This document shows, piece by piece, positions 4,546-62,403 of a DNA stretch of 64,000 nucleotides. The stretch spans positions 17,001-81,000 of the forward strand of contig DEKJ01000003.1 in NCBI GenBank assembly GCA_002353825.1. The letters run 5' to 3'. Position 1 is the first letter of the stretch, and every line of letters starts with the position of its first letter. The position numbers and the translations under genes are program-made. The notes below the pieces were generated by a model. It saw nothing but the letters and a program-made list of their open reading frames with translations. It was not told the DNA's origin and searched no databases. This DNA comes from Prevotella sp. UBA2725. Lineage in GTDB: Bacteria; Bacteroidota; Bacteroidia; Bacteroidales; Bacteroidaceae.

Positions 4546-4559
4546 AACATACGACATAT

Positions 4560-5783: not shown

Positions 5784-5812
5784 CCGAATGTTCAACCAAC
5801 AACATTGATACT

Positions 5813-6358: not shown

Positions 6359-6467
6359 GCTACAATATATTAGCTTATTATTTATATCTTATTAACTATT
6401 GTTCATGCAGTTATTTTCCGTAATGGATTATCTTAATATATAAAGCGCAAATTCATTTGTACTAAAC

Positions 6468-8132
6468 ATGGATATAGAAGAACTGATAGAACGAATAAAA
6501 GAAGGAGACAATGTAGCTCTGGAAACATTATATAAAACATACGCTCCGATGATGAGAAATGTATGTGTCAACATAACCAATGAGGACGAGGACATAGTGA
6601 ATGACCTCGTCCAAATGGCGTTTATTCGTGCTTATTATTCTCTCTTCCAACTCCGAGATACTTCAAAGTTTGGAGAATGGGTGGCTACAATTACTAAGAA
6701 TGTTGCTTTGAAACATCTGGCACAGAAACGAAAGATGCGATTTGTTCCCTTTTCAAGTAAGATGGAAGAAGAATTGGAGATAGGTTGTACCTTATCCTCC
6801 GATTCGCTATTGGCAGAAAAGGAAATACATGAGTTGATCGACCAATTGCCTAAAGGATATGGGCGAGTGTTTAGAATGTCTGTTATAGAAGGTTATTCGC
6901 ATCAAGAAATAGCCGAAAAATTGGGCATTGAGCCGCATAGTTCTTCTTCTCAATTGTCAAGGGCAAAGGCTTTGTTGCGTAAGATGATTAACAGAAGGGG
7001 GATGGGGATTGTTATATTTGTATTGGTATGCACTCCTCTTGGCATATATTTGCTCAAAGACAGAGGTAAGGAGGAAATACAAAAAATCAATATAGCCAGT
7101 GAAAAGAAAAATATAATTAGGCAAGTAGAAAACAAAGCCCCTAATAATGCAGCGAATGTGGCTTCTGCAAATTCAGTTGCAGAAATACACTGTAATCAAT
7201 ATGGTGTATCATCCATTATTCCTGAGGAAATTCCATCAAATGATAGCATATATACTCCAAAGGATTCCATACAACATAAGTTGTTGGTTGTAGAAAATAA
7301 TGATAGCATCCTGCTAGATACATGCAAACAACCTTGCATAGAGACAGAGCATTACCTTGCAGACAATGAGCAAACAAGCAAAAAGCATCAATGGCAGTTG
7401 CTTGCAGCGGGTTCTCTTGGCTCAGCTTTGGCTCAGAATGCTTACAAGCTGTTTGTGGGTAATGCTAGTAGTGATTTTGATGGGCCTCAACCTTCTGGCC
7501 CTGAAACATACTCAACTTGGGAGGGTTATTATCATTATCTGCAACAGAATGCGCATGATGATATGTCGAAGAAAGACAAAGCTCTGATGGATATTGCCCA
7601 AAATAATAAGGGGAAAATCGAGGAACATGAACACCACGACAAGCCAGTTACCTTTGGTCTCTCGGTAACAAAATCATTGGGGAATAATTGGAACTTGGAA
7701 ACAGGTTTGCAGTATTCTCTGTTAAAGTCCGACTTCACGTTAGGCGAAGGTGCATATTACATCAATCGTAACCAAAAGGTGCATTATTTGGGAATACCTT
7801 TGCGAGTGTCGTATAAATGGCTTGATGTCAAGAACTGGTCAGTTTATTCTTCGCTTGGCGGTGCTTTGCATATTCCTATATACGGTAAAACCAGCGAAAG
7901 GTATATTGTAGGAAATACTACACCATATATGGATAATTGGCATTTCACACCTTCGCTGCAATGGAGCATTGGCACAAGCATTGGAGTGCAATATAAGTTC
8001 GCTCCTATGTGGGGTGTCTATATTGAACCTTCATTCAACTGGTATGTGCCAAACGGCAGCTCTATCCATACAATTTGGACTGAGCATCCGTTCTCTTTCA
8101 CAATACCTTTCGGCGTTAGGTTTACATGGTAA
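6468..8132 (+). CDS. ECF sigma-70 factor fused via TM helix and linker to an outer-membrane beta-barrel
   Basis: Sigma2 (DLVQMAFIRAY...FGEWVATITKN), sigma4 (GYSHQEIAEKLGI...SQLSRAK), TM GIVIFVLVCTPLGIYLL, barrel HYLGIPLRVSY...GVRFTW. Confidence 0.9.
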   Translation: MDIEELIERIKEGDNVALETLYKTYAPMMRNVCVNITNEDEDIVNDLVQMAFIRAYYSLFQLRDTSKFGEWVATITKNVALKHLAQKRKMRFVPFSSKMEEELEIGCTLSSDSLLAEKEIHELIDQLPKGYGRVFRMSVIEGYSHQEIAEKLGIEPHSSSSQLSRAKALLRKMINRRGMGIVIFVLVCTPLGIYLLKDRGKEEIQKINIASEKKNIIRQVENKAPNNAANVASANSVAEIHCNQYGVSSIIPEEIPSNDSIYTPKDSIQHKLLVVENNDSILLDTCKQPCIETEHYLADNEQTSKKHQWQLLAAGSLGSALAQNAYKLFVGNASSDFDGPQPSGPETYSTWEGYYHYLQQNAHDDMSKKDKALMDIAQNNKGKIEEHEHHDKPVTFGLSVTKSLGNNWNLETGLQYSLLKSDFTLGEGAYYINRNQKVHYLGIPLRVSYKWLDVKNWSVYSSLGGALHIPIYGKTSERYIVGNTTPYMDNWHFTPSLQWSIGTSIGVQYKFAPMWGVYIEPSFNWYVPNGSSIHTIWTEHPFSFTIPFGVRFTW

Positions 8133-8205
8133 TGCTCTCGTCATGCAGTCTTTTGAACTTTTGTCGCCTCTTATTGATAGAAGCACAAAAGTTTCTGAAA
8201 ACGAA

Positions 8206-9276
8206 ATGTACAAGACAACAGATTACCTGCGCAATGGGGTGCTATACCTCAACAATATTCTTCGCCCTCAACATAAGAAACTGAGCACGTTGATGATTTA
8301 TACCACGACAAAATGCCAATCGCGCTGCAAGCATTGCTCCATTTGGCAAAAGCCAGAAGAACATTTGTCGTTGCGTGACATACAGAAGATTATGGCAAGC
8401 CGCTGCGTTACCAAAAATACGGTTGTGGGCTTGGAAGGTGGAGAGTTTATTCTTCATCCTGAATCCACAGCCATCATGGAGTGGTTCATGCGCCACCACC
8501 CCAACTACACCCTGCTATCTAATTGCCTCAATCCACAAAAGATCATTGACGCTGTGCGTAGATACAATCCCCGGCATTTGTATGTGTCGTTGGATGGCGA
8601 CAGAGATACATACAAGGAAATGAGAGGATGCAATGGCCATGACAAGGTGATAGAGGTGGTTGAGGCCTTGAAAGATGAGGTTCCCATTTCTTTGATGTTC
8701 TGCCTCTCTCCATGGAACACCTTCAAGGATATGGACTATGTGATTGGAGTGGCGAGGAAATATAAGGTAGATGTACGCATCGGCATTTATGGCACGATGG
8801 ACTTCTTCAACACCACGGCTGATTTGCTTCGTACAGATAAGACAAACTACTTGCAGAGTATTCCAGACAATATTCATGAGACGGAAGAAAATTTTGATTT
8901 TGTAGCATTGTATGAGGAGTGGAGAAACGGCCATCTGAAACTGCAGTGTCAAAGCATATTCAGCGAACTGGTTATTCATTCTAATGGGGATGTGCCGTTG
9001 TGCCAAAACTTGGGTGTGAAACTTGGCAACATACACAAGCACTCTTTGGATGAGATATTCAATTCTCGCCAAACAGCCCATGTGCAATGCCAATATTCCA
9101 AAAACTGCAACGCCTGCTGGATTAACTTCCATCGTAAGTATGATATCATCTTGTTGCGCAACTTCGAGAAAGTCGTCCCCAAGAAGATGATAGAATGGTT
9201 CTACGGCAAATATCAATGGACAGGCAATGAGAATGACACCTACAAACAATACATGAATCGGATTATCAGAAGATGA
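8206..9276 (+). CDS. Radical SAM protein with SPASM/twitch-like C-terminus
   Basis: CxxxCxxC (CQSRCKHC), GGEFILHP, GDVPLCQ..LGNI, CNACW; start 8206 preferred over 7969. Confidence 0.9.
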   Translation: MYKTTDYLRNGVLYLNNILRPQHKKLSTLMIYTTTKCQSRCKHCSIWQKPEEHLSLRDIQKIMASRCVTKNTVVGLEGGEFILHPESTAIMEWFMRHHPNYTLLSNCLNPQKIIDAVRRYNPRHLYVSLDGDRDTYKEMRGCNGHDKVIEVVEALKDEVPISLMFCLSPWNTFKDMDYVIGVARKYKVDVRIGIYGTMDFFNTTADLLRTDKTNYLQSIPDNIHETEENFDFVALYEEWRNGHLKLQCQSIFSELVIHSNGDVPLCQNLGVKLGNIHKHSLDEIFNSRQTAHVQCQYSKNCNACWINFHRKYDIILLRNFEKVVPKKMIEWFYGKYQWTGNENDTYKQYMNRIIRR

Positions 9277-10313
9277 GATACACAAAGCAATTAATCGACC
9301 GCTACAAGCGTTTCCGAAATACAAGTCTTTTAAGACACGACTATCATGCTAGGTATGCTTTCGTCGGTATAGGCAATCATAGCATGAACAATCTTTATCC
9401 AGTGCTTGCCTTCCTGCATGTGCCCTTGAAGTATGTTTGCTGTAAGTCTGCTGACAAACTGCCTTTAATCGAGCGAGCTTATGCTGGTGTGCATGCCACT
9501 ACTTCCTTGCAGGAAATACTGGCAGACGAAGAAGTGAAAGGCGTTTTTGTCTCAACAGCTCCACAAGCGCATTTCGCAATAGCCACAGAAGTATTGAAGA
9601 GCGGCAAGGCACTGTTTATCGAAAAGCCTCCATGCCAAAGTTTGGAGGAATTGGCGCAACTGTTGGATTTGCAAAAGGCGCATGACGCTATTGTGGAGGT
9701 GGGGTTGCAGAAGCGGAACTCGCCTATCATGCGTCTATTGAAAAAGGAGTTGAAAAAGAGCAAAGCCTCTGCATGCTATAACCTTAAATATCTTACAGGT
9801 GCCTATCCGGAAGGCGATGCCTTACTCGATCTCTTTATCCACCCATTAGATTGCATGACCTATCTGTTTGGCGAAGCTCAAGTGAAATATGCGGAAAGTG
9901 CGGGATGCCATACCTTGATGCTCATTCTTGAACATCGTTGTGCCACAGGCATGCTGGAACTGTCAACTGGCTATTCTTGGAATGACGCAAAAGAACATTG
10001 GACGATCAACACAGTTAGAGGCATCTACGAGATGGACCAATTCGACAGTTTGACCTTTCAGCCCAAGCCCCAAATCATAATGGGCATCCCAATGGAAAAA
10101 ATGTTTCCGTGCGGAAAGACTACCGTCAGTCTGCTTGAAAGAAATAACTTTGTTCCTTTGCAGGAGAATAACCAAATTGTGTCCCAAGGCTATTACGATT
10201 CGATAAAGGGTTTTGTTGATGCCGTAGAGGGGAAGAATATGCGAGTGCCATCTTCATTGGAACACCTAACTCACACCTACTCTTTGATAGAGAATATACG
10301 AACATTAATATAA
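9273..10313 (+). CDS. Gfo/Idh/MocA family oxidoreductase
   Basis: FVGIGNH Rossmann motif, HFAIATEVLKSGKALFIEKPP, DLFIHPLD. Confidence 0.9.
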   Translation: MRYTKQLIDRYKRFRNTSLLRHDYHARYAFVGIGNHSMNNLYPVLAFLHVPLKYVCCKSADKLPLIERAYAGVHATTSLQEILADEEVKGVFVSTAPQAHFAIATEVLKSGKALFIEKPPCQSLEELAQLLDLQKAHDAIVEVGLQKRNSPIMRLLKKELKKSKASACYNLKYLTGAYPEGDALLDLFIHPLDCMTYLFGEAQVKYAESAGCHTLMLILEHRCATGMLELSTGYSWNDAKEHWTINTVRGIYEMDQFDSLTFQPKPQIIMGIPMEKMFPCGKTTVSLLERNNFVPLQENNQIVSQGYYDSIKGFVDAVEGKNMRVPSSLEHLTHTYSLIENIRTLI

Positions 10314-21296: not shown

Positions 21297-24200
21297 TTAA
21301 TAGACCACAACCTTCTTGCCGTTGACCACGTAGATTCCGGCTGTCAGAGAGAGTTCGGTCTGCTGACCGTTCTTGAGGCTCTTGGCGAAGACTTGTTGTC
21401 CGGAGGTGCTGAATATCTTTACGTTCACGTCGTTGTTAGCCTTGATAATCAGTCCTCCGACGATGCTCTGGATAGAGAGATTAGAGTTGGCCTCGTTTGT
21501 CACCAGGCTGATACCCGTCGTTGTCAGTTCGTCGTAGGTGATCGTGAAGGCGCTCAACTTCTTTGCATTACCTCCGTTGTTTGCAGTGCTGTAGTAAGCA
21601 CGGAACGGATAAATGTACACATAAGGACGACTTGCACTTAGATTAGATGAATTCAAGAATCTGTTGTTGGCAAAGTAATAGTAACTGCCTGACTTCGCAT
21701 ATTTCTTGCCAGAATAAGACCCTTGACAAGTGAATGTGTATGAATCACTACCGATAGTACCTGTAGAGGTTCCGCCCGTGAAAGTGTAGTCATTATTCAT
21801 TGTGCAGGTAGCGTCGTCACTTGCTGAAGGACAGGTTGCAGCTACATCTGAGCCATATTGGGTAGCGATAAACGATACAGTCTCATCGTCAGGGGCATTC
21901 GTTACCTCCACCATGTAAGGCATGTTCGGAGTTGTGCTACTGGCTGTCACGGCGTCAAACTTAGCCTTGCCGATGTAGTTGGTTGTGGTCTGAGCCTCAT
22001 TCTCGTCCAGTGTCATGCAATTGTCAGTCGTCATTTGTGAGACCTTGAAAGTGCAGGCATCCGAGGTTACGTTCGTATGTATGCCATCCTGAAGTTCGAG
22101 TGAGAAAGGCAGGATGATGCTGGCTCGTGCGACCTTACCGTTCATCGGCACCGTGATCAGTCGAGTATAAGTAGCATAGTTCTCAGCGGGCACCGTAATC
22201 TTATAAGGAGTGAAGAACGGCTGCTTGTCGGTGATGACGATGTTCTTGCAGGCGCGATAGCTTCCGCTCTGTGTCTTCTGCACGTAGTTGTCCTCGTTGT
22301 AGTTCGTACGCTCAGGGAAGAAGATGAGCACGTTGGGGTTGTACAGATTCTTGATCTCAGTCATTCTCTCCTTGCTCTCTATAGAGACTGAATAGAGGTT
22401 TGTCAGATCGAGATAGAGTACCTGTTTCTTGTCGGCATTAACCTTCTTCAATGCACTGTTCAGTGCGTTGCACATCATGTCGGTCGTCAGATAAGCTTGT
22501 GTGCTTGGGATTTCATAGCCTGATTCACCGGGATGTCCGGTCTCGTAAGCCTTGAAGACGGCACCGTACATGGGTACCTCTTTGTCGCCATCGTAGCAGG
22601 TAGCGGTGTAGAGCGTCTTCAGATCAGCATATGCGTCATAGTCTTTCTTCGTCAGCTGAATATCCATGAGGTAGTAAGCATACTTGCGGTGCTCGAGGGC
22701 TGTCGTCGGTGCAATGTTGTAGCGCGTCTCATCACCGGTGAAGAGGTAGCATTTCTTCTCACCATCAATGGCAATCTCGATATCGGTCGTGAAAGTACCA
22801 CCTTGTGAGGTATAGAGAGCTTCAGAATAAGGATACTCCACTAAAGAAGCCTCAGTGACACCTTCCGTTGTATTGGAAAGCTCAGAAGCGTTATTGTATT
22901 TGAACTCCTTATCGCCACATGCCTCTGACTTCACCTTTATGGAAGCCTCCTCATTGCCAGTAGCTGTGTACTGCTTGCCATCGCCATAACTATTATAGTA
23001 GTCAGACTTCACAAGATAGTTGCGGGAGTTACCCGTGGTACCGTGACCATAGGTCGCGTCCATGTACTTACTCGTCAAGTTTTCGAAAGAGAACTTACAG
23101 GTCTGACCGTCATCGACGAAGTCGGAGGGGACATAGAAGATGAACTCACCACCTGCGACCTGGAAGTCGTTGCTTGTGAACTGCTGGACGAGCTCCGGCG
23201 TGTTGGCCTTCGGCGACTTACACACGATGTCGAGCGTGTTGATGAAGGGGTTCAGCGCCTCCATGTTGAGGCTGTAGGTGATCAGCGCTTTCGTGCCATC
23301 TGCAAGTCCGGAGATCGTGAACTTCACAGCGTCGTTGTTCAAACCTGAGACGGAGAGAGTAGCGTTTTTATTGCTTGAGGATACATTGGCCATCTCCTCA
23401 ACATTTTCCTTGTTTGTTCCATATAAGGATATCTTAAAGTCGGACGGCGTATAGGCTGGATTCTGAGCGGATGAAGAGATCACATTCCAAGTAGTAGCAT
23501 AATCAGAGTAATACTTGCTTACAACCTGGGCATAGCTACGAACATTCGAACAAATGATATACTTATCTCCATACATTAACTGTCCATTGACAAGTTTAAA
23601 TGTAGATGCCTTAGAAGCATCGGTGGTTCCACGTAAGAAATAGTATGTATTACCTCCATAAGTAGTTGTGGATACGTATAGATAAGTGTTACCACTATAC
23701 AGTTTACCATACTTGTTCAGGTACCAGGTGACGGATGCATTATCCCATGAGCCATTGGTCTGGAGATAATAAGTTGTTGTTCCAAACCATCCATTTGAAA
23801 CTGAATAAGTTATCGTACCAATATTCCCGTCATAGGAAATCGTGGAAGCACTAGCCTTAGTACCATAGTGTCCTTTGATCGTTGCACCGGTGATACGGAA
23901 GCCGAGCGGAATGCTCTTGCCAGACTGGTCTGTGGTAGAGGTTGGAGTCTCAATATAATAGGTACCATTGCCGAGGGCATAGTACAGATTGCCACCGTTC
24001 TGCAGCGTCTGGATATTACCCGATCCAGCTGTCGTGGGCAACTTCTTGTCGCTTGTTACGGCCTCCTTCTGATAGAGGTAGTTCTCAGCCGTCAGCTCAC
24101 GCACAGCCGTGTAGTCATAGCTGAAATAGGTGGAATTGTTCTTGGTGTTGTTTGTCAGCAGACCGAGGTCGAGCTTACCTGTATTGAACGGTGTAGCGAC

Positions 24201-24887
24201 CATGTTCACTCCTTCAGAAATGATGCTGGCAGGAGATTCCGGGGTACCCTCCACGTTGAAGGCGCTCTCAGCCGTGAAATAGAGCTCGATGCTCTTGATC
24301 GTAGCAGCGTAGAAGCCGGTCGTACTATGACCAAAGTAGAAATACAGGTTGTTGGTCATGTCTGTCTCCGTCTTGCTCGTACGCTCTATGACATACTCCT
24401 TGCTGTCGGTTGCTGCGGGCATTGTGACGACGGAGGTCAGATTCGTCTGGAAGTTCTTGTCCATCTCTGCAAAGGTCTTGCTCATGGCGGTCAGCTGCAT
24501 GTTATGGAAGTTACTGCGCTTGCCGATGTTGTTGAGCAGGACAATCTTGTAACCCGTGAAACGGAATCCTTTCGGCAACGATATGCTCATGTGGGTATTC
24601 GTTGTTGTAGGTTCTCCGCCGCAGATCACATAGAGATTCTTGTTCACGGTATTATCCAGCACGATGTCTCCTGCCGGATCATAGAGGATACCCGTCTCTG
24701 TGAGCGTGGAATGGTCTGACACTAAAAGGGTAAGGGGAAGCTGCTTGTGTCTCCATAGAGAAGACCAGCCATAACTAAAGCCCACTTCATTTGTACCCGT
24801 CACACCGGCAATCAGACTACCGGAGGAGGGAGAAATGGTGACATTCTGTCCTTTTACTGGCATGAGGCTTGCCCAAAGACAGATCAT
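21297..24887 (-). CDS. Large secreted protein with T9SS type A C-terminal domain; start may lie upstream (about 24947)
   Basis: C-terminus TTGISLV...VKIFSTSGQQV...GIYVVNGKKVVVY; N-terminal hydrophobic signal ending VKGQ. Confidence 0.85.
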   Translation of the reverse strand: MICLWASLMPVKGQNVTISPSSGSLIAGVTGTNEVGFSYGWSSLWRHKQLPLTLLVSDHSTLTETGILYDPAGDIVLDNTVNKNLYVICGGEPTTTNTHMSISLPKGFRFTGYKIVLLNNIGKRSNFHNMQLTAMSKTFAEMDKNFQTNLTSVVTMPAATDSKEYVIERTSKTETDMTNNLYFYFGHSTTGFYAATIKSIELYFTAESAFNVEGTPESPASIISEGVNMVATPFNTGKLDLGLLTNNTKNNSTYFSYDYTAVRELTAENYLYQKEAVTSDKKLPTTAGSGNIQTLQNGGNLYYALGNGTYYIETPTSTTDQSGKSIPLGFRITGATIKGHYGTKASASTISYDGNIGTITYSVSNGWFGTTTYYLQTNGSWDNASVTWYLNKYGKLYSGNTYLYVSTTTYGGNTYYFLRGTTDASKASTFKLVNGQLMYGDKYIICSNVRSYAQVVSKYYSDYATTWNVISSSAQNPAYTPSDFKISLYGTNKENVEEMANVSSSNKNATLSVSGLNNDAVKFTISGLADGTKALITYSLNMEALNPFINTLDIVCKSPKANTPELVQQFTSNDFQVAGGEFIFYVPSDFVDDGQTCKFSFENLTSKYMDATYGHGTTGNSRNYLVKSDYYNSYGDGKQYTATGNEEASIKVKSEACGDKEFKYNNASELSNTTEGVTEASLVEYPYSEALYTSQGGTFTTDIEIAIDGEKKCYLFTGDETRYNIAPTTALEHRKYAYYLMDIQLTKKDYDAYADLKTLYTATCYDGDKEVPMYGAVFKAYETGHPGESGYEIPSTQAYLTTDMMCNALNSALKKVNADKKQVLYLDLTNLYSVSIESKERMTEIKNLYNPNVLIFFPERTNYNEDNYVQKTQSGSYRACKNIVITDKQPFFTPYKITVPAENYATYTRLITVPMNGKVARASIILPFSLELQDGIHTNVTSDACTFKVSQMTTDNCMTLDENEAQTTTNYIGKAKFDAVTASSTTPNMPYMVEVTNAPDDETVSFIATQYGSDVAATCPSASDDATCTMNNDYTFTGGTSTGTIGSDSYTFTCQGSYSGKKYAKSGSYYYFANNRFLNSSNLSASRPYVYIYPFRAYYSTANNGGNAKKLSAFTITYDELTTTGISLVTNEANSNLSIQSIVGGLIIKANNDVNVKIFSTSGQQVFAKSLKNGQQTELSLTAGIYVVNGKKVVVY

Positions 24888-54296: not shown

Positions 54297-54926
54297 TTAA
54301 TAATAGAACAGTTCGCCCATAGCTTTTCCCCAATGACCTTTGCGAAGATCATCGGGGTGCATGAAGATATAATACATGCCACAGTCGTAAAAGCGTAATC
54401 CCCAGCGGTCTTCTTCGTCAATCTGCAAGAGGCATACGTCTCCTGTGTGAGCCTCTTGCACTTCATCTTGATAAGGTTCGCCAAGCATCCTTATCCCATC
54501 TCCCGTCTTGTTGTTATCAAGGCTAAACACCATCTCTTCTGCTTCGCGGAAGATACTCTCTGACGTGCCTTCCCAATGAATATCATAAGGATGTAGATCG
54601 TTTATGTTGTCTGTATATAGCACAACGGGCGGCTCATGATAATCTAAAGGACTGTCCGTCTCTCCGAGGAAATAATCGAGTGGTGCGAAGAAATAGAGCA
54701 TGCCAGTCTGCGGCAATATATGGTCGAAATCGAACTTTGCTATTTCTTCGCATCGGACTTGACAAATGAAGGTCAGCGGTTCCTCATAATTACCATCCTC
54801 ACCCAGTATCGTTACCGTTGGATAGGGTGTGTCTGCCGGTAAGTCCGGAGCTCCCCACCAATGACTCTTGCCGATGAGAGTGGCATTCATTGTCTTCGTT
54901 TCTATTCTGATTGCCATAATATTCAT
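54297..54926 (-). CDS. DUF1963 (YwqG-like) protein
   Basis: SHWWGAPDLP...PLTFICQVRCEEI...GMLYFF; LLQIDE...DCGMYYIFM..DDL. Confidence 0.8.
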   Translation of the reverse strand: MNIMAIRIETKTMNATLIGKSHWWGAPDLPADTPYPTVTILGEDGNYEEPLTFICQVRCEEIAKFDFDHILPQTGMLYFFAPLDYFLGETDSPLDYHEPPVVLYTDNINDLHPYDIHWEGTSESIFREAEEMVFSLDNNKTGDGIRMLGEPYQDEVQEAHTGDVCLLQIDEEDRWGLRFYDCGMYYIFMHPDDLRKGHWGKAMGELFYY

Positions 54927-54949
54927 CTTTAATGTGAAGAGTAATCCAG

Positions 54950-56266
54950 TTAAGAGTAAGCATCGTAGCGTCCGTCGTCGTCTTCCTCATCCTCATCATC
55001 TCCAGTGATCTCTTCCATTCGATTTAGTTCTTCTTCCATCTTTTGTTCGAATTGCGGGAGATAGATCTGCTCTATTGGAGCGGCATGATGGTCGAGCATA
55101 CCTTTCCTGTATCCTTCGATGACAGTCTGTAGCGTATCACCGCGCAGCATCAGTGCTTTGTAGGCACATTCGTAGGCATAAGCCTCGTCGTATTTCTTGG
55201 GCGCTGTTCGGTCGTTGAGAATCATCCGGACCAGCGCAGAGAAGCAGGAAGGCTCACGCAGCAAGGCTCCTGCTGAGTACCATTTCCATGCCTCACCATA
55301 ATCTCTCGGAAAGCCATACAACCCTTCCTCGTAATAACCTCCTAAGTAGAGAGGGGCAATAGACTCGCCGAGCAAGCTTGCATAGCGCAGATCGTCGAAG
55401 AGCGATTGATGGATCGCCGCCTTGTCCTCATCTGCCAAGTCATCGTAGAGTTCCTCGTATATGAGCATGGGATAAGCAAGGAAAGCCTCAGAAGCTGTCA
55501 CTTCACGAGCCTTATCCATGATGTTCAGGAATTCCTCGCGATCCTCTACGTTGCCGTTGTCGTCACAGCAACTATAATAGGCTTGCCAGAAGTAGGCGGA
55601 ACTGCATCCTTTGCGGGCGGCAGTTTCATAGTTGTATAGCGCATTGCTCACGCGCCCAAGCTGAATGTCCGCATCCCCCATTAGACTGTAATAGATTGGG
55701 TCCGGCACTTCGTGGTTGCGGATTGCTTTACTGATAATCTGCTCGATCTTGTCATAGGCCTGCTCTGGAGCCTTCTCCTTTTCGAACTGGCCATAGATGG
55801 CATCGCGTAGTTCTTGTTGGATAGCCTTCTCGCTACCTTCGTCAGCAGCCACTTTCGTCAGTCTGCGATAAAGAGCCACATCCGCCTCTCCATAGTCGCC
55901 GTCACGATACGTCAGCGCTAAGAAAGCACGGGCATCCGAGATACGTGCGTTGAGATAGGCCGAGATATAACAGTCTCGTTTAATGCGGTTGGAACTTTCC
56001 GACTGGGGAATACAGTCGTGAAGACGAGCCACAGCATATTCCATATAAGGATTGCCGCTGTTGGCTAATTGGTTTATCCTTGCAGCGTCTTCCTGGAGCA
56101 ATGCCACATTGTTACGTTGCCGGAGCAGACTCAGGAAATAACGCTGATGATCCTCGTTGTGCTCTATGTCTTCAGCGGCAGCCCAGAAAGCCTCCCGCAC
56201 TTTATAGTCGAGGATGAGTTGCTGTATTGAGTTCATGTCCACTTTGCTTTTCATTGTTTCAATCAT
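54950..56266 (-). CDS. Sel1-like/TPR repeat protein
   Basis: ARAFLALTYRDG, ALYNYETAARKG, LGGYYEEGLYGFPRDYGEAWKWYSAGA. Confidence 0.8.
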   Translation of the reverse strand: MIETMKSKVDMNSIQQLILDYKVREAFWAAAEDIEHNEDHQRYFLSLLRQRNNVALLQEDAARINQLANSGNPYMEYAVARLHDCIPQSESSNRIKRDCYISAYLNARISDARAFLALTYRDGDYGEADVALYRRLTKVAADEGSEKAIQQELRDAIYGQFEKEKAPEQAYDKIEQIISKAIRNHEVPDPIYYSLMGDADIQLGRVSNALYNYETAARKGCSSAYFWQAYYSCCDDNGNVEDREEFLNIMDKAREVTASEAFLAYPMLIYEELYDDLADEDKAAIHQSLFDDLRYASLLGESIAPLYLGGYYEEGLYGFPRDYGEAWKWYSAGALLREPSCFSALVRMILNDRTAPKKYDEAYAYECAYKALMLRGDTLQTVIEGYRKGMLDHHAAPIEQIYLPQFEQKMEEELNRMEEITGDDEDEEDDDGRYDAYS

Positions 56267-56280
56267 TCAATCTTTCAATC

Positions 56281-56952
56281 TTAGTCGAACATCACTCCCG
56301 GATTCATCATGTGGGGTGAGCGCCATCTGATGCCGTACATCTGCAGAACTTGCTCCTTGTAATACCACAGTGCATGGCAGAAGCCCATACCGCGTGGATG
56401 ATCATAAAGGATCAGGTCAAGTTCCCGCTCTACATCATCAATGACATTCTCATACTGAAGCGTCCATTCCACAGGGTCATCTTTCAAATGGCCATCCGTT
56501 CTGATTTCGTCAAGCATTCCTTTGTCGGCGAGCATTATGTTACGCTGGAGCCTGTCAATCTTTTGAGAAGCATGTTCAGTTGTTGACAGATCATGTTGCT
56601 GCTGGGTCTCAATACGCCTCAAGACTGTCAGATACATTTGCCAGAGTTTTAAGCTCAGTCGAGGATGCTCGAAGAGCGTGTCGGTCATTCGGCTGAGCGC
56701 TTCACTCAGAAACGGGAGCATGGGGTCGAAGCATTCAAGCCATGCTGCATAGCGAAGCAGAACCCTCGTCAGCTCACTGTTCTCCCAGAAGCGTCTCTGT
56801 GCCCGCAGATTATCCTCAGCGATGAGCACACAACCGCAGCATATGTCTTTATACAGTTCAAGGTCGCTGGCTCCCGAGCCGAATGCTTTCCCCTCGGCAG
56901 TCCTCAGAACCTTCATGTATTCTGAGCGGATCGTTACAATATTCTCTTCCAT
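56281..56952 (-). CDS. Conserved hypothetical protein with C-terminal GMGFCHxxW...WRSP..MNP..FD motif
   Basis: 223-aa ORF inside operon; helical N-terminus. Confidence 0.7.
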   Translation of the reverse strand: MEENIVTIRSEYMKVLRTAEGKAFGSGASDLELYKDICCGCVLIAEDNLRAQRRFWENSELTRVLLRYAAWLECFDPMLPFLSEALSRMTDTLFEHPRLSLKLWQMYLTVLRRIETQQQHDLSTTEHASQKIDRLQRNIMLADKGMLDEIRTDGHLKDDPVEWTLQYENVIDDVERELDLILYDHPRGMGFCHALWYYKEQVLQMYGIRWRSPHMMNPGVMFD

Positions 56953-56975
56953 AATCGGTAGTCAATAATAAAGGG

Positions 56976-58979
56976 TTATACACGTCGGTACAGATTGCCA
57001 TAGCTGTCTCGGTACAGCGTTTCTCCTCTGCCGCCTCCAAGAAGTCCACCGGCGAGAATACTTAGTCCGAAGAGTCCGCACAAAAGCGGGATGAGCACTT
57101 TCAGTACAGCCACGACCAGTCCACCTATCGCAACCATGCATCCGATGATGTAGACGAGTACGAAAGCCGTGATAAGGGAGCCTTTCAGTGCGCCTACCTC
57201 ATGGATATTGCGCACAAGCGTGATGATGGCGCCGGTGAGAATAATGCCGAAGAACAGAACTACTGAGGTCCATTCGGCCGTTGTCTCTTTCCAGTCCAGG
57301 ACCTCCTCCGTCAATAGCAGGCAGGCAATGAGAGCCGGGATGCTGATGCAGAAACTGATGACAGCAGGCTTCATGTGGATCTTTTTCCCACTCTGTTCAC
57401 CGCGGAAGAGCAGTCCCTCATACCACCAGATACTGAACACTTGAACCATCACGACGATGAGGAAGGGAAGAATGCGAAGTACGGAGCCTAAAAAGCCGTA
57501 TCGATCCTTGTCGCACCACCAGAAAGCCTGACCGCCGAAGAGCAGATAGTCACCGACTTCTATTGCTGCTACTCCAAGCAGACACAACGGCATGATGATG
57601 ACCATGGCATCGAGAAGGGTCAACTGCACTTGTCTCATGCGTTCGAAGCGCGACAAGAGGAGAGGAAGGATGATCGTGAACAACAGGGGCAAGGATACCA
57701 GACCAATCACGAGCCAGCATGGCCAGAGCGTAGCGAAGAACACCCCTAAGGTGCTGTGCTGCCGTGCTATCTTTGTGGAGAGTCCCGTTTGCAGACTGTC
57801 GGTGTTCGTCTGGCTCCACAACAGATCCGCCTTACGTATCTGATAATGTTTCCCATTGTTTACGAAGATAACGCTGTACTTCGTAGAATTTGGCTTTCCA
57901 CACGAATCTATCATTAATCCACGCGGAAACACTTTCTTGCGGCTATAGTCCTTCACGATCCATGCCGTATCCTTCAACACCGCACGATAACAGGTCACAC
58001 TGTCATACAGCAATGGGTCGATGATATATTGTGGTGCTCCGGCGTTAGCAAGTTGAGCTATGGCACCTTTCCCTCCGTTGCTTAGGTTCACTGTTTGTGG
58101 TTTACTGCTTGTAGCGCTGAGGATGTTTCCGTTGAGAGAGCAGCCTTCTGGTGCAATGAAGAGTCTGTAGTTATCCGTCAAGCTGTCACCTGTAACGTTT
58201 TCAGTCAGATTCATGTAGCATCCTTCCCGCTGAATGGATAGAATGCCTCGCAGGCTGTCTGTCTGCAATCCGTTTCTTGTTTTAATGAACATCCTTGCAG
58301 AGACAGTATTGCTATAGGCAGAATCAACGATAAGTGTCGAGGGTTGCCCGGCTACTTCTCCATTCCATGAGCCCATCAGCAGCTTGGCATAGTCGTAGGG
58401 CACTATTGTCGTCGCTTTATCCCACGCTACCCACGCACCCACACCAATCACTACAAGGAAAACAAGGACGGTTGCGAGTGTAGGCCCAGTCTGCCTCAGA
58501 TAGCGCATGACAGGACTTGACGACCTTTGTGTCCTTTGTGGCTTCCTGTTTCTGCGATTATTTGTTGAGGCTGGTTTATGGGAGGTAGGACGAGGAGACT
58601 GAGGTCTCTGCACTGTCCGTCTCGATTGTTGACTCGCGGACAACCTCGGTCCGCCATTTGCTTTCTGCATGGCATCAGCAAACTGGCGGAGCGTAGTGGC
58701 ATCGGTAGTGTACATCTCCTTTGCCACTGCCCGCAGGTCTTTGCTGGCCTGGACAATCTCACGGTTGTTGCCGTGAAGCTTATCCGAATCGCTCAATAGT
58801 TTCACCATCCGCTCTACACGGCGTGTGCAGTCGGTGCCGAATTGCGCTGTTCGCCACAGATTCCTCAGGGTGTTGATAGCATCCTGTTCTGACGAATGCA
58901 GGCTGTCGGTATTCGCTTCTAATACCTTGAGCGCTTCACCCCACTTTTTCAACCGGATATTGAAGATTGCCTCTTGCAT
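56976..58979 (-). CDS. Multi-domain membrane protein
   Basis: Helical N-domain, R/P/S/Q linker, TM, extracytoplasmic beta-rich domain, about 6 C-terminal TMs, Gly-rich tail. Confidence 0.8.
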   Translation of the reverse strand: MQEAIFNIRLKKWGEALKVLEANTDSLHSSEQDAINTLRNLWRTAQFGTDCTRRVERMVKLLSDSDKLHGNNREIVQASKDLRAVAKEMYTTDATTLRQFADAMQKANGGPRLSASQQSRRTVQRPQSPRPTSHKPASTNNRRNRKPQRTQRSSSPVMRYLRQTGPTLATVLVFLVVIGVGAWVAWDKATTIVPYDYAKLLMGSWNGEVAGQPSTLIVDSAYSNTVSARMFIKTRNGLQTDSLRGILSIQREGCYMNLTENVTGDSLTDNYRLFIAPEGCSLNGNILSATSSKPQTVNLSNGGKGAIAQLANAGAPQYIIDPLLYDSVTCYRAVLKDTAWIVKDYSRKKVFPRGLMIDSCGKPNSTKYSVIFVNNGKHYQIRKADLLWSQTNTDSLQTGLSTKIARQHSTLGVFFATLWPCWLVIGLVSLPLLFTIILPLLLSRFERMRQVQLTLLDAMVIIMPLCLLGVAAIEVGDYLLFGGQAFWWCDKDRYGFLGSVLRILPFLIVVMVQVFSIWWYEGLLFRGEQSGKKIHMKPAVISFCISIPALIACLLLTEEVLDWKETTAEWTSVVLFFGIILTGAIITLVRNIHEVGALKGSLITAFVLVYIIGCMVAIGGLVVAVLKVLIPLLCGLFGLSILAGGLLGGGRGETLYRDSYGNLYRRV

Positions 58980-59012
58980 CTTACATATAGCTTTTAACTC
59001 CTATCTCCTAAC

Positions 59013-60602
59013 TCACTCTACAACTGTCTTTCCTATTGCCGCAATCGACTTGCTCAGCTCCTCACCTGTCTTTACGCCTTGTATGCGGAGCGTGAAGTCG
59101 AGTTGTTCGCTACTTACCTCGGCATGGACATGGAGGATACCCTCTCCGTCGACATCGAAGATGACCTTGACCGGGGTGCCTTTCGGCCACTTCTGATGGA
59201 TATCAAGATAACGGTCTTCAAGGAGTGTGCAGAAACGCTCCTCCACTACCTTGTCGGTCTCTGGACTGGTGAAGTCGCTCTCAAGCACCTTCACCGGCAC
59301 CTGGGTCTGGTTGTCGCACATCGTATTGAAGGTCTCTTCAGCACGTGTCGGCAAGGAGGTGTTGGCAAAGATAAGATTGCTCACCATCTTGTTGCCGTCA
59401 GCATCCATGAAGTCGGTACCATAAGTCTTGCTTGTGACATTCACCACACGTGCCCGCGGTCCCCGCATCGTCTTGGGCTTCACATCACTGTCGCCATTCT
59501 CATAGTCCTCAATGGCTTTGTTGTATGCCTCATTCATGGCGTAGATAGCAGCACCTTTCGCTACACACTGGTCCGGGTCGCTCAGTTTGGCATCACAGTT
59601 GAACTCTGCATCGAGCCGTTGTTTCACCTGTGGCATGCGACTGGAGCCACCGACAAGCAGAAACTCAAAGTCATCGTTGTAACCTTTCTCTTTGGCAATG
59701 TCGATCACCTTGCGTGTGGCGTCAATGGTCTCGTCGAGATGCGCCCGCGTGAGCTCATCGAAGAGCGCCCGTGAGATCTCAAAACGTGCAGACTGACCAT
59801 CATACTGCACATTACATTTCACATTGTCCTTTGCAGTAAGTTGTTTTTTCTTCGTTTCTGCCTCAAGCAGGAGCGTGTACTTCAGTTCCTCATCGTCCAT
59901 CGTGTAACTGCCGCCGGTCTGTGCATTGAATTGATCGAGCATATAGTTGGCAAGCTCAGTGTCCCAGTCGACACCGCCTAAATGATGGTCACCGCCTGTA
60001 GCTATGACTTTAATGGCTCCACCGTTAACATTGATGATCGTCACATCGAAGGTACCGCCTCCAAGATCATACACGAGGACGGTCTTGCGCTCTGTCGTCT
60101 TCATGCCGTAGGCGATGGCAGCTGCCGTGGGCTCGTTGATGATGGCAAGCACATTGAGTCCAGCTATCTCTCCGGCCTGTTTGGTCTGCATGCGCTCTTT
60201 CGTGCCAAAATAGGCCGGGCATGTGATGACCACATCCTTGACGGGTTCGGGATTGTCGCCGAGGTCGTTGGCGTCCTGAACGAGCTTCTTCAAGATCAAG
60301 GCTGATATCTCGGATGGATCATAATGATAAGGGAACTTGTTGGTTGCCTTGTCGAAATCAGCGTCCACACCCATGGATCGCTTCACGAAACTCACGCAGT
60401 TGTGAGGCTCCGTGGCGAGCATGCCTTTAGCTTCTGAGCCTACCATCGTCTTGTCCTTACTCTCAAAGTAGACGACAGACGGCGTCGTCTGGTTGCCTTC
60501 AAAGTTGGTGAGAACGATAGCCTGGTCGAACTTGTCAACCTGTGCGATGCAACTGTAAGTAGTGCCTAAGTCTATGCCGTATACGGCGCGTGTCTTGTCC
60601 AT
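59013..60602 (-). CDS. Non-canonical Hsp70 family protein (DnaK paralog, no helical lid)
   Basis: GIDLGTTYS, CPAYF, NEPTAAA, DLGGGTFD, GGSSRMP; start 60602 gives 529 aa. Confidence 0.92.
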   Translation of the reverse strand: MDKTRAVYGIDLGTTYSCIAQVDKFDQAIVLTNFEGNQTTPSVVYFESKDKTMVGSEAKGMLATEPHNCVSFVKRSMGVDADFDKATNKFPYHYDPSEISALILKKLVQDANDLGDNPEPVKDVVITCPAYFGTKERMQTKQAGEIAGLNVLAIINEPTAAAIAYGMKTTERKTVLVYDLGGGTFDVTIINVNGGAIKVIATGGDHHLGGVDWDTELANYMLDQFNAQTGGSYTMDDEELKYTLLLEAETKKKQLTAKDNVKCNVQYDGQSARFEISRALFDELTRAHLDETIDATRKVIDIAKEKGYNDDFEFLLVGGSSRMPQVKQRLDAEFNCDAKLSDPDQCVAKGAAIYAMNEAYNKAIEDYENGDSDVKPKTMRGPRARVVNVTSKTYGTDFMDADGNKMVSNLIFANTSLPTRAEETFNTMCDNQTQVPVKVLESDFTSPETDKVVEERFCTLLEDRYLDIHQKWPKGTPVKVIFDVDGEGILHVHAEVSSEQLDFTLRIQGVKTGEELSKSIAAIGKTVVE

Positions 60603-60622
60603 AGTAGGTATTATTAAAGGGT

Positions 60623-61177
60623 TTATATTCCGTTCTGTTCGTCTTTTAGTTTGTAGACCACAATGCGTGCCTGACGCAGTACTCTGCCGGTTGCCTCGTC
60701 CTTGAATCCTCCAGACAGACATTCGGCTATGGTGTTAGCCTTCGCTTCGTCGTCGGTATCTACCGTGCGCATGGCCTTATGCTCCTTAGGCTTATAGGGG
60801 TCGCCTGCAAGAGGCGTGAAGCGCTCGATGGAGTATTCGTCCTCAAGCATATCGGAGATATAGAGAATATTGTTCTCTATCAGTTTCTTGGCTGAGGCAG
60901 GATCAGTAGCTTCTTCCGATGGACCAAGATGCATGCAAGTGTCGGAGAGGCGTTCATAGATATTGATGATGCTCATGACGTAACCTTTGCTGATATCAGC
61001 AATGAGACCCTTCTTGTATTGCTGCAACTCTTGGTGCAGATCGCGGATAATCTCTTCCTGATAAACGGCTGTGTCGATCTTGTCAGGCAGGCCCTGTAAC
61101 TTCTGAATCTCCTCTTTGAGTTCACCGATATTCTTCTTGATGTTCTCCAATTCCTCTCTGTAGTCAATTGTTTCCAT
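60623..61177 (-). CDS. grpE: GrpE-like nucleotide exchange factor
   Basis: N-terminal coiled coil; GDPYKPKEHKAM...GGFKDEATGRVLRQARIVVYK. Confidence 0.8.
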   Translation of the reverse strand: METIDYREELENIKKNIGELKEEIQKLQGLPDKIDTAVYQEEIIRDLHQELQQYKKGLIADISKGYVMSIINIYERLSDTCMHLGPSEEATDPASAKKLIENNILYISDMLEDEYSIERFTPLAGDPYKPKEHKAMRTVDTDDEAKANTIAECLSGGFKDEATGRVLRQARIVVYKLKDEQNGI

Positions 61178-61359
61178 GGCTCATAGTATTTGGTTCTGCC
61201 ACAAAATTAGGAAACGGAAGTCATCACCACAAGAGCAGATGGTCAAGTTTACTGTTTGGTGTAAACGTTTTTACTTGTTGGCGCTTATTTTACGGATTGA
61301 AATCTCAGTAATCTCAATTGTTTTTCGTATCTTTGCCCACGTCCAACACCTACTGCTAT

Positions 61360-62403
61360 ATGGATATAGAAGCAAGCATACGGCTGAGAGACTTTTCATG
61401 TGGATTGTTTTTCATGTTTCAGATAATAGGAACGCTCGCGCTGTTCCTCAAAGGCCGTACGCACCGTCTTCAGCGGTCGGCATTCCATTTCATGCTCTAT
61501 CTGCTATTGATCAGTGTCTTTGAGGCTTACGTTTTCTTTATCCATAACTTCTTGGGTGAGCAGGAGAGGCCTGTGACGAACCTGCTCCAGTTAACAGTGG
61601 TACCTCTTGCCTTGTTGTTTCTTTACCGTCTGACGCACACACAGGGGATGCGCCTTCTTCCTGCTGTTCTCAATTTCGCACCTTATATCGTTGCCTTCGT
61701 CTTGTATATATGTACATTGTCGAAGGAAATATACGATGGTATCATGTTGGTTGCATTCGTTCATGCCTTCTCCATCATCGTTTATGGGTTCATTGCCGTG
61801 AGGCAGTTCAATAGGATGTTAGTGGCTAACTTCTCTTCAGACGAGCACATGTCGCTTCACTGGCTTTGGCTTTTTCTTTTGTTGTATGTAGCGCTCGGTT
61901 GCGTTTGGCTGTGGGCTACATGGTCTGGATCATTGTTCGTTGCCACATTTTATAATATTACGATTGCCATCATCCTTGCCTTGCTATGCTATTTTGTCTA
62001 CAGACAGGAGGATATGTTGGAGAATTTAGGAAAGGTCGAAGATGATACGCCAAAGGAAGACTGTACCAAAGATTATCATTTTGCAGATAACTTTGAGAAC
62101 GTGTTCAGTATCGATCGGATCTATCTGAACCCAAAGCTGAACATCAATGACTTGGCGCGGGCATTGGGTACGAACCGCACTTATGTCTCCAATTATATCA
62201 ATCAGCAACTCCACACGACCTTCTACGAGTATGTGAATAAATGGAGGATAACGCGCGCCAAGCAGTTGCTGCTGTCTACGTCTTTGCCCCTTGAGGATAT
62301 CGCAGAGCAGTCTGGTTTCAACTCGCTGAGCAGCTTCCGCCGTTACTTCGTCAGTTCTGAGAACATGACGCCCATGGCTTACAGAAAGTTCAGAGGTAAG
62401 TGA
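61360..62403 (+). CDS. Membrane-anchored AraC family regulator
   Basis: About 7 N-terminal TMs; YLNPKLNINDLARALGTNRTYVS, SGFNSLSSFRRYF; TATCTTTG promoter 61328-61335. Confidence 0.9.
   Translation: MDIEASIRLRDFSCGLFFMFQIIGTLALFLKGRTHRLQRSAFHFMLYLLLISVFEAYVFFIHNFLGEQERPVTNLLQLTVVPLALLFLYRLTHTQGMRLLPAVLNFAPYIVAFVLYICTLSKEIYDGIMLVAFVHAFSIIVYGFIAVRQFNRMLVANFSSDEHMSLHWLWLFLLLYVALGCVWLWATWSGSLFVATFYNITIAIILALLCYFVYRQEDMLENLGKVEDDTPKEDCTKDYHFADNFENVFSIDRIYLNPKLNINDLARALGTNRTYVSNYINQQLHTTFYEYVNKWRITRAKQLLLSTSLPLEDIAEQSGFNSLSSFRRYFVSSENMTPMAYRKFRGK

Follow-up and report, generated by a model that had tools for sequence, protein, structure and literature searches.

A divergent GrpE-Hsp70 pair with a membrane-protein partner and a separable accessory cassette in Prevotella

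Which partner serves an Hsp70 that is encoded beside its own GrpE-like protein and without a J-domain protein is the question raised by a locus of Prevotella sp. UBA2725. Hsp70s are generally held to need J-domain proteins for targeting and for activation of their ATPase. The bacterial ones are commonly assigned to three types, DnaK, HscA and HscC (PMC8215388). The locus lies on contig DEKJ01000003.1, within an analysed stretch of 64,000 nucleotides (the window), and consists of six consecutive open reading frames (ORFs) on the minus strand (54297-61177) in the ORF list of the window. A preliminary description of this DNA had regarded the six genes as one candidate system. Comparison of related loci showed that they are two modules, a conserved core and a separable accessory cassette. 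The reading preferred here, held with about even confidence, is that the core (a GrpE-like protein, an Hsp70 paralogue and a membrane protein of 667 amino acids (aa)) is a dedicated membrane-tethered Hsp70 machine, in which an N-terminal domain of the membrane protein, the N-module, would stand in place of a J-domain, and that the remaining three genes were recruited as a cassette. The core genes and their parts are:

60623..61177, minus strand: GrpE-like nucleotide-exchange factor, 184 aa (Pfam GrpE)
59013..60602, minus strand: Hsp70 paralogue, 529 aa, with nucleotide-binding domain, linker and beta-sandwich substrate-binding domain (SBD-beta) (Pfam HSP70)
56976-58979, minus strand: whole gene of the 667-aa membrane protein (ORF and Kyte-Doolittle scan)
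58656..58979, minus strand: N-module, residues 1-108 of the 667-aa protein (family conservation and AlphaFold2 model)
58482..58655, minus strand: low-complexity basic linker, residues 109-166 of the 667-aa protein (read from the sequence)
56976..58481, minus strand: membrane part of the 667-aa protein (Kyte-Doolittle scan)

The tight spacing that had been described was confirmed for all ORFs, with intergenic gaps of 20, 33, 23, 14 and 23 bp in the order from the grpE-like gene to the last gene, which encodes a DUF1963 protein, when the Hsp70 start is taken at 60602. The mechanically called Hsp70 ORF (59013-60722) overlaps the grpE-like gene; the real start is placed at 60602 (MDKTRAVYGIDLGTTYS), where a 529-aa protein in the database begins that is identical along its whole length (100% over 100%). 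Judging from homologues, two accessory genes may also start later, at 56236 for the gene of a 438-aa protein (gap 44 bp) and at 54917 for the DUF1963 gene (gap 32 bp).

The Hsp70 matches the Pfam HSP70 family (E = 1.8e-103, profile positions 1-501 of 599) and scores below the NCBIfam equivalog cutoffs, with 337.9 bits against 648 and 330.4 against 822.55 for DnaK (PRK00290/TIGR02350) and 306 bits against 709 for HscA. No NCBIfam HscC model was matched at E<=0.1. In sequence the protein is closer to Escherichia coli DnaK (34% identity) than to E. coli HscC (31% over 456 aa). BLAST aligns it with DnaK up to DnaK residue 489, after which about 35 residues remain; it has no alpha-helical lid, since it ends, at 529 aa compared with about 640 aa for housekeeping DnaK, shortly after the SBD-beta. 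The GrpE-like protein matches Pfam GrpE (PF01025; 2.4e-12, 47.3 bits against a cutoff of 25.8, profile positions 11-165 of 165) and stays far under all NCBIfam GrpE equivalog cutoffs, as a divergent member of that family. Neighbourhoods were compared for homologues at decreasing Hsp70 identity, together with a scan of 185,579 species genomes, and 84 loci were surveyed; the GrpE-like gene lies upstream of Hsp70 in 68 of them. The Hsp70 family is sporadic, with at least 600 pattern matches among the species genomes scanned. Presence of dnaK has been reported for 98.9% of bacterial genomes (PMC11019930), so that a separate canonical dnaK is expected in this genome; the 64-kb window holds this one Hsp70 gene and no further ones. 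Judged by sequence, the pair is a specialised paralogue and not the housekeeping one, which agrees with the preliminary description.

The same conclusion is reached at the level of single residues. For this comparison the 84 clade members were aligned to E. coli DnaK, whose residue numbers were checked at eight positions known from the literature. Retained in the window Hsp70 are the catalytic and allosteric residues K70, N170, E171, T173, D194 and D201 (DnaK numbering), and the DnaK loop around G32 (EG-x-TTPS) is kept as well. Every DnaK residue known to contact the J-domain and its His-Pro-Asp (HPD) motif, taken from the contact list of PMC8215388, is changed: N147G, D148T, R167A, E206N, D208N, E217K and Q378Y, with D211 deleted. 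Residue D35 of the HPD motif bonds R167 and Q378 of DnaK (PMC8215388), and R167 is missing in all 84 clade members. Consistent with what had been seen before, no J-domain with an HPD motif was found in the six proteins, nor anywhere else in the window.

Which protein then accompanies this Hsp70? The core of GrpE, Hsp70 and N-module protein recurs in loci of Prevotella, Butyricimonas, Alistipes, Rikenellaceae and Barnesiella, with Hsp70s 60-87% identical; across Bacteroidales it is conserved at 55-87% Hsp70 identity. The expectation that the genes co-occur in other genomes held for the GrpE-Hsp70-membrane protein set; for the three accessory genes it held in the closest Prevotella relatives alone. 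Lineages differ in the size and domain content of the gene downstream of Hsp70; common to these genes in the Bacteroidales loci is an N-terminal segment of about 108 residues, the N-module. Its gene follows Hsp70 in 11 of the 11 N-module loci among the first 90 loci. In the loci examined it is not directly after Hsp70 only in L008 and L009, where a second Hsp70 gene separates the two, and in L122, where an insertion sequence (IS) fragment replaces GrpE-Hsp70. That the membrane protein is a partner of the Hsp70, as proposed earlier, is supported by this conservation, and more specifically it is a new N-terminal domain that travels with the Hsp70. In L008 the second Hsp70 gene (6701-8335, 544 aa) lies between the Hsp70 paralogue and a 253-aa minimal N-module protein, and an AAA_21/DUF4435 gene pair is located upstream. 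Two Bacteroidales-type loci with Hsp70s 55-57% identical had no detectable N-module: in L017 (11715-13196) a helical protein of 493 aa is encoded, perhaps a strongly diverged N-module version, and L015 (11611-12591) has a polyprenyl synthetase directly downstream of Hsp70 and no obvious partner.

An exhaustive HMMER search gave 98 representative clusters for the N-module family, superseding a word-indexed search with a 113-aa N-module query that had returned only 3 fragments. The module is nearly always N-terminal and is duplicated in tandem in 24 of 97. Residue E31 is invariant, and W13, L38, W42 and H69 are conserved at 90% or more. The AlphaFold2 model based on a 76-sequence alignment predicts five helices (predicted local distance difference test (pLDDT) 94.3, predicted template modelling score 0.84) and replaces a single-sequence model (pLDDT 75.5); in it, the near-invariant H69 is predicted at the turn between helices 3 and 4. 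There was no Pfam match at E<=0.1 and no NCBIfam match. A Foldseek search of the model against the PDB gave a best E of 0.86, with no J-domain among the 50 best matches listed.

A resemblance of 'DKLH-GNN-RE' to 'KYH-PDRN' had prompted the idea of a cryptic J-domain, which was rejected and is kept as a functional analogy only. Comparison by hhalign gave a probability of 1.9% against six canonical J-domains and of 0.7% against the HPD-less J-like domains described below; Pfam, which holds the J-domain as PF00226, gave no hit, and Foldseek was negative on two models. The conserved turn of the N-module is H-[GS]-[NS]-N in place of HPD, with K-H-P-A-D in a few members, and the five helices predicted by the model differ from the four-helix J fold. 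A BAG-like exchange factor was rejected as well; BAG1 chains appeared in the Foldseek lists only at template modelling scores of 0.2-0.3 with a root mean square deviation of 14 Å.

Beyond the N-module the membrane proteins are variable. Between N-module and first transmembrane (TM) helix of the window protein lies the linker, of low complexity, basic and rich in Pro, Gln, Ser and Arg; equivalent P/Q/T/R-rich linkers follow the N-module in L001, L005, L006, L011 and L093. The Kyte-Doolittle scan predicts TM1 at residues 167-185, an extracytoplasmic loop of 237 aa (186-422), about six TM helices (423-625) and a C-terminal tail. The membrane part belongs to no Pfam, NCBIfam, PADLOC or PHROG family, and full-length homologues of the 667-aa protein were found only in the closest Prevotella loci. 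Among the 84 N-module proteins scanned for C-terminal domains, SH3_3 was found in 26, MORN in 13, TonB_C in 5, FKBP in 3 and Sel1 in 3, and others carry DUF805, thioredoxin-like, carbohydrate-binding module (CBM) or Ig-like domains. A constant cytoplasmic head with a variable envelope-facing tail is the pattern expected of a tether or co-chaperone. The smallest N-module protein, the 253-aa one of L008, consists of N-module, linker and TM anchor only, a minimal form that for this reason fits a tether or co-chaperone better than a passive client.

In sister clades (Hsp70 identity 36-45%) other partners fill the corresponding gene position. In 37 of the 84 loci a protein family of about 960 aa is encoded downstream of Hsp70, and at least 19 of these 37 proteins begin with a J-like domain without HPD, reading 'ENYYILLEL..DPPE......AI.KKQ..WS..RNHPTKG' and variants (hhalign against J-domains: probability 68%, E = 4.8e-5). 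This domain is followed by double zinc ribbons, FNIII or Lcl_C domains. A TM segment was predicted in 17 of the 37, and the Desulfobacterales-type members have a single TM segment near residues 345-400 and then an extracytoplasmic Lcl_C domain. The N-module thus occupies the gene position that is held by an HPD-less J-like protein in sister clades. Other arrangements exist. In Lachnospiraceae loci a protein of about 140 aa, TM throughout, follows GrpE-Hsp70, usually with a protein of about 575 aa after it. These Lachnospiraceae-type loci (L020, L021, L023, L024, L026, L028, L030, L037, L061, L070 and L085), seven or eight of which also hold genes for a Ser/Thr kinase, an FHA protein and a JAB-like protein, mostly upstream, are another clade variant with a membrane partner and signalling genes. 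Loci of Planctomycetes, Ktedonobacteria and bacilli often have a second Hsp70.

Nine distant clade loci gave strong matches to GAP1-N2/GAP1-M (Pfam, 4.3e-36), and one more gave a weak match; they correspond to the Hsp70-plus-GrpE theme of the GAP1-N2 conflict systems (Kaur, Burroughs, Iyer, Aravind 2020, eLife; PMC7159879). These systems are themselves computational predictions, for which a membrane-proximal role and extracellular binding domains were stressed (PMC7159879). In the distant loci the clade Hsp70s (36-45% identity) stand with GrpE, often a second Hsp70, an FNIII/zinc-ribbon J-like protein and a GAP1-N2 protein. In contrast, the window and all Bacteroidales loci have no GAP1 homologue and no FNIII or J-like protein and carry the N-module membrane protein instead; no GTPase or nuclease gene was seen in them either, with no dedicated GTPase model used. 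The likeness to the predicted conflict systems nevertheless speaks for another reading of the whole locus, as a conflict or defence system in which an Hsp70/GrpE switch senses phage or toxin proteins and releases or activates a membrane-damaging polytopic effector, with the accessory trio as sensors or adaptors. The high variability of the partner C-terminal domains and the sporadic distribution would fit such a system, and membrane effectors are common in abortive-infection systems. We consider it unlikely. PADLOC-DB 2.0 gave no hit for the six proteins, as had been predicted, with coiled-coil noise only for GrpE (E>=0.0016). The neighbours in the window are housekeeping genes (NAPRTase, two GH3 glycosidases, EamA, a sulfatase, Dus, an M16 peptidase, an S46 peptidase and fumarate reductase) and form no defence island; no integrase, tRNA or composition shift was found at the locus, the GC content of which is the same as in the flanks, and synteny with a divergent AraC-family gene (see below) is stable across relatives. 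The suggestion that the Hsp70/GrpE pair acts on incoming toxin or phage proteins found no direct support in this housekeeping context, and only distant clade members lie in predicted conflict systems.

A phage or mobile origin was rejected. IMG/VR yielded only giant-virus Hsp70s of about 35% identity and one truncated copy, PHROGs matched by generic Hsp70 families only, and the locus has no tRNA, integrase or GC shift. The truncated copy is located on a viral-classed contig (L100:3469-4863, IMGVR_UViG_3300010882_000203), where a GrpE-like gene is followed by an Hsp70 paralogue that is 72% identical to the window Hsp70 and broken off after about 170 residues. A pseudogene, a break in the assembly or a bacterial fragment wrongly classed as viral would each account for it.

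The other half of the question concerns the three accessory genes, which in the window follow the core directly:

56281..56952, minus strand: 223-aa GMGFCH protein (p223), accessory module (motif invariant in homologues)
54950..56266, minus strand: 438-aa helical protein (p438) with weak Sel1-like repeats and an acidic tail, accessory module (family profile)
54297..54926, minus strand: DUF1963/TYPP protein (YwqG family), accessory module (Pfam DUF1963)

The first of these, p223, has a variable helical N-terminal half and a conserved C-terminal domain of about 70 residues ending in ...MNPGVMFD. The GMGFCH motif noted earlier is present as PRGMGFCH, of which R-G-M-G-F-C is invariant across 27 relatives; the full set of invariants in these 27 sequences is D159, E168, R187-G-M-G-F-C192, W196, W210, M216-N217 and F222-D223. 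The family comprises 98 homologue clusters with the C-terminal pattern R-G-M-G-F-C...W...W...MN..V.FD. No Pfam, NCBIfam, PADLOC or PDB match was found, DUF7503 appearing only below threshold and in 6 of the 27 members. The 438-aa protein had been labelled a Sel1-repeat protein. Pfam, including its Sel1-repeat family PF08238, is silent on it at E<=0.1, as are NCBIfam and PADLOC, and the label draws weak support from a family profile that matches the solved Sel1-repeat proteins 8sxq (6e-4), 4bwr (7e-4), 6ork and 1klx (E = 6e-4 to 2e-3) over residues ~262-365 only. The protein is 33% identical to E. coli YbeT over 55 aa, and its family is confined to close Prevotella loci, a metagenome scan returning only four close loci. 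The public name 'rubrerythrin', carried by a 436-aa member of its 90% cluster, is without sequence support. The assignment of the third protein to DUF1963 was borne out (Pfam PF09234, 8.4e-19, 69.2 bits against a cutoff of 23), and members of its cluster are named 'uncharacterized protein YwqG'. DUF1963 belongs to the TYPP superfamily, a proposed peptide-binding, chaperone-like domain (PMC4275035). The window protein contains 'WWGAPD' and 'LLQID', which correspond to the GGxP-like motif and the conserved Gln by which that paper defines the superfamily (PMC4275035).

The trio accompanies the core only where the Hsp70 is at least 84% identical (L005, L010, L093, L120, L121 and L124); it is absent from all core-only loci at 55-70% Hsp70 identity. 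The gene order is membrane gene, p223, p438, DUF1963 in the window and in L005, where two unrelated genes are inserted, and membrane gene, DUF1963, p223, p438 in L010, L093, L120 and L121. The trio also diverges faster, with 48-74% identity against 84-87% for Hsp70. Relatives of the GMGFCH protein occur without Hsp70 in L090/L125, L095 and L126. In L126 (9001-11723; also L127) genes for a 188-aa GMGFCH-like protein, a 493-aa protein and a DUF1963 protein lie beside glycine-cleavage genes without Hsp70 or GrpE; the likeness of the 188-aa protein is limited to the C-terminal GMGFCH domain (59% identity over 69 aa), and the DUF1963 protein is 28-32% identical. This set suggests that the GMGFCH domain and TYPP protein are a module in their own right. 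In L122 the trio and the membrane gene outlast the chaperone pair. These observations speak against a single conserved six-gene unit and show two modules.

Several of these loci deserve separate description. In L122, a rumen-type metagenome contig, a C-terminal transposase/integrase fragment (4395-4649, minus strand; NNERPHMSLDWMTPAQAA) stands in place of GrpE-Hsp70; the membrane gene has an altered N-terminus (4567-6657; MWKVIPIFKLHLKKW), DUF1963, p223 and p438 are still present, and a GH2 beta-galactosidase gene lies upstream; this looks like IS-mediated loss of the chaperone pair. L090 (9689-10672) and L125 (8509-9672) represent a gut Bacteroidales lineage that is very common (163 index blocks). 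There the gene just before the GMGFCH homologue (49% identity) encodes 97 aa, and upstream of this pair lie gyrA and the gene of a secreted TPR protein; HtpG and ClpB are encoded a few kb away on the opposite strand. In L095 the GMGFCH relative lies beside a 427-aa helical protein. Neither this protein nor the 493-aa protein of L126 could be retained as a homologue of the 438-aa protein, phmmer and hhalign finding no similarity.

Two alternatives remain for the trio. All six genes could form an integrated machine in which the GMGFCH, Sel1-like and TYPP proteins are obligate cofactors or clients, comparable to the Sel1 (YbeQ/YbeT) and DUF1266 (YbeR/YbeU) proteins perhaps working beside HscC. 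In its favour, the six genes are found together and tightly spaced wherever the Hsp70 is at least 84% identical, Sel1-repeat proteins are also encoded at the E. coli hscC locus, Sel1 repeats are fused to three N-module proteins, the TYPP protein is of a predicted peptide-binding, chaperone-like kind, and contigs bridge the junction of membrane gene and GMGFCH gene. The absence of the trio at 55-70% Hsp70 identity, its varying gene order with the insertion in L005, its occurrence without a nearby Hsp70 and its persistence with the membrane gene in L122 all argue against obligate integration, which is judged improbable. The opposite alternative is that the trio is an unrelated cassette, for example of orphan immunity-type or antitoxin-like proteins, that landed downstream of a chaperone operon. 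Shuffled order, insertions, faster divergence and occurrence apart from Hsp70 would be expected of such a cassette, and immunity-gene clusters typically encode variable arrays of small proteins poor in domains. However, no toxin, recombinase or secretion gene is adjacent in the loci seen, no promoter or terminator-like site above chance was found between membrane gene and trio, and the trio is stably retained beside the system in at least six loci, which makes this explanation quite unlikely. Finally, that the locus is the organism's housekeeping dnaK-grpE operon, as its public annotation ('molecular chaperone DnaK' and 'GrpE') would have it, is hardly credible for a 529-aa, lidless Hsp70 with R167A and 34% identity to DnaK, scores at about half the NCBIfam equivalog cutoffs, no dnaJ nearby and a family as sporadic as this one compared with dnaK itself (PMC11019930).

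The preferred reading, a membrane-tethered Hsp70 machine with a recruited cassette, can be put as follows. The Hsp70 would be catalytically competent, GrpE-dependent and lidless, having lost the canonical J-surface. The cytoplasmic N-module would take the place of the J-domain protein, docking the Hsp70 at the membrane, and may also trigger its ATPase; the adjacent disordered basic linker is likely to provide a built-in Hsp70 binding (client) segment. In this way the membrane protein would come under the control of ATP and GrpE cycles in its conformation, assembly or insertion, and with it its envelope-facing part, here the 237-aa loop and six-helix bundle, in relatives SH3b, MORN, TonB_C, FKBP, thioredoxin-like or carbohydrate-binding domains. 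The accessory cassette would encode protein-interaction proteins that one Prevotella lineage recruited downstream of the core, along with a divergent membrane-bound AraC regulator. A further proposal, put forward tentatively and on balance doubtful, is that the N-module is a new class of Hsp70 co-chaperone, with five helices and unrelated to J, which would bind to an Hsp70 whose J-surface is remodelled and set off its ATPase with H69 as the counterpart of HPD, giving a J-domain-independent cycle coupled to the envelope.

Among the closest analogues is HscC, encoded in the E. coli ybeQ-ybeR-djlB-ybeT-ybeU-djlC-hscC locus; the others are GrpS-SglK of Myxococcus (below) and the Hsp70/GrpE theme of the GAP1-N2 systems. 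HscC too is a specialised Hsp70 of reduced length (HscCs are 550-580 aa) in which the J-binding surface is altered and the D211 loop lost; its dedicated partners are described as acting at the membrane, membrane proteins are its proposed clients (PMC8215388), and Sel1-repeat and DUF proteins are encoded in its locus. A functional link between trio and chaperone is plausible, since the E. coli locus joins a specialised Hsp70, partners described as membrane-acting and Sel1-repeat proteins. However, the window Hsp70 is less identical to HscC than to DnaK (31% against 34%). The HscC partners DjlB and DjlC have true J-domains, of which the window locus has none, and HscC is without a GrpE signature and thought to be GrpE-independent, whereas the dedicated GrpE-like gene is the most conserved neighbour here. 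The DUF proteins also differ (DUF1266, not DUF1963), and the accessory proteins are alike only in the weak Sel1 match. In E. coli djlB and djlC (L097:5416-6843 and 8213-9664) the J-domains read H-P-E and not H-P-D (…FHPETDPQGF… and …CHPETDPQGF…), a natural motif variant in partners of another specialised Hsp70.

GrpS-SglK of Myxococcus xanthus (MXAN_6672-MxDnaK2) resembles the window pair in being a second Hsp70, distinct from the housekeeping DnaK, with its own GrpE directly upstream in one operon (PMC11019930). It was likened by description only; MxDnaK2 falls within the DnaK (PRK00290) definition and works with J-domain proteins, and an N-module membrane partner has not been described for it. 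With the canonical DnaK-DnaJ-GrpE system the core shares the Hsp70 fold, intact ATPase residues, interdomain linker, SBD-beta and GrpE-type exchange factor; it differs in having no lid or HPD partner, in its replaced J-contacts, in its sub-cutoff scores and in its sporadic distribution. E. coli DjlA is a membrane-anchored J-protein with a C-terminal J-domain that uses the housekeeping DnaK. As in the minimal N-module protein of L008, a short domain that couples to Hsp70 (a role that the N-module would share) is tethered by a TM anchor and a flexible linker. The N-module differs from the DjlA J-domain in its N-terminal position and in belonging with an Hsp70 of its own, and is related to it in neither sequence nor fold.

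Several points weigh against the membrane-tethered machine with its separable cassette. The Hsp70 could be served by a canonical DnaJ from another part of the genome, which the missing R167, Q378 and D211 make less likely. No similarity of the N-module to J-domains or to any solved co-chaperone was detected, in sequence or in fold, and it could instead be a client tag or regulatory domain. No locus of the closest clade lacks the accessory genes, which lie there at gaps of 14-44 bp, and with the Sel1 repeats fused to three N-module proteins elsewhere this means that the trio may be functionally integrated here. The transcript evidence for an operon is weak. Contigs from cDNA-labelled runs cover all genes and bridge the junctions of Hsp70 with the membrane gene and of the membrane gene with p223, the RNA nature of these runs being uncertain. 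The runs classed as 'RNA?' cover everything, the convergent neighbour included, and may for that reason hold DNA carry-over; the three clear metatranscriptomes (X31-X33) gave no coverage of the locus.

Upstream of the operon, two further features bear on its possible regulation:

61318..62403, plus strand: divergent AraC-family regulator with a multi-TM N-terminal half (Pfam HTH_18)
61202..61209, minus strand: candidate operon promoter box TAATTTTG (read from the sequence)

The AraC-family protein matches HTH_18 at residues 279-357 (2.2e-21). Orthologues of 47-55% identity occupy the same divergent position in L005, L010, L093, L120, L121 and L124, and none was found in the core-only loci compared; the protein is a probable local regulator, conserved only in the six-gene clade. 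The candidate box lies about 25-32 nt upstream of the grpE-like ATG and fits TAnnTTTG, the Bacteroidetes -7 consensus known from Bacteroides promoters; so short a motif is only consistent with a promoter. Sigma-70 promoter and terminator scans gave site counts at or below the expectation from shuffled sequence, and are uninformative because the genome is that of a Bacteroidetes member.

DNA of the locus occurs in gut, bovine-gut and wastewater metagenomes. Contigs of several metagenome and cDNA runs break at the p223/p438 junction (window 56266-56282, loose ends at 56271-56282) and continue with unlike sequence, and one run has a 6-base deletion at 54993; both indicate strain-level variation, at the start and in the acidic tail of the 438-aa gene. 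Elsewhere in the window, a 1196-aa ORF (21297-24887, minus strand) has no Pfam family at E<=1e-5.

Specialised Hsp70s that have partners of their own were described before, namely HscA/HscB, HscC/DjlC and GrpS/SglK of Myxococcus, as was the combination of Hsp70 and GrpE in predicted conflict systems. The three-gene form of Bacteroidales, the N-module family and its replacement of a J-like protein by position were not found in Pfam, NCBIfam, PADLOC, PDB or the literature searched. The window Hsp70 belongs to a further widespread clade (at least 600 genome matches) with its own GrpE and without R167, in which at least 19 of the 84 loci have HPD-less J-like partners; in Bacteroidales the partner domain has been replaced by one without known relative. 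If the N-module drives the Hsp70, this would be a new wiring of the chaperone, and the compact three-protein system would let one ask directly what a J-domain is needed for and whether anything else can drive an Hsp70. If the N-module is only a client tag, the locus would still show clearly that a single family of membrane proteins can have a chaperone of its own. On account of the peptidoglycan-, TonB- and folding-related domains in the partners, the system may be an ATP-powered link between cytoplasm and envelope in abundant bacteria of the gut and rumen.

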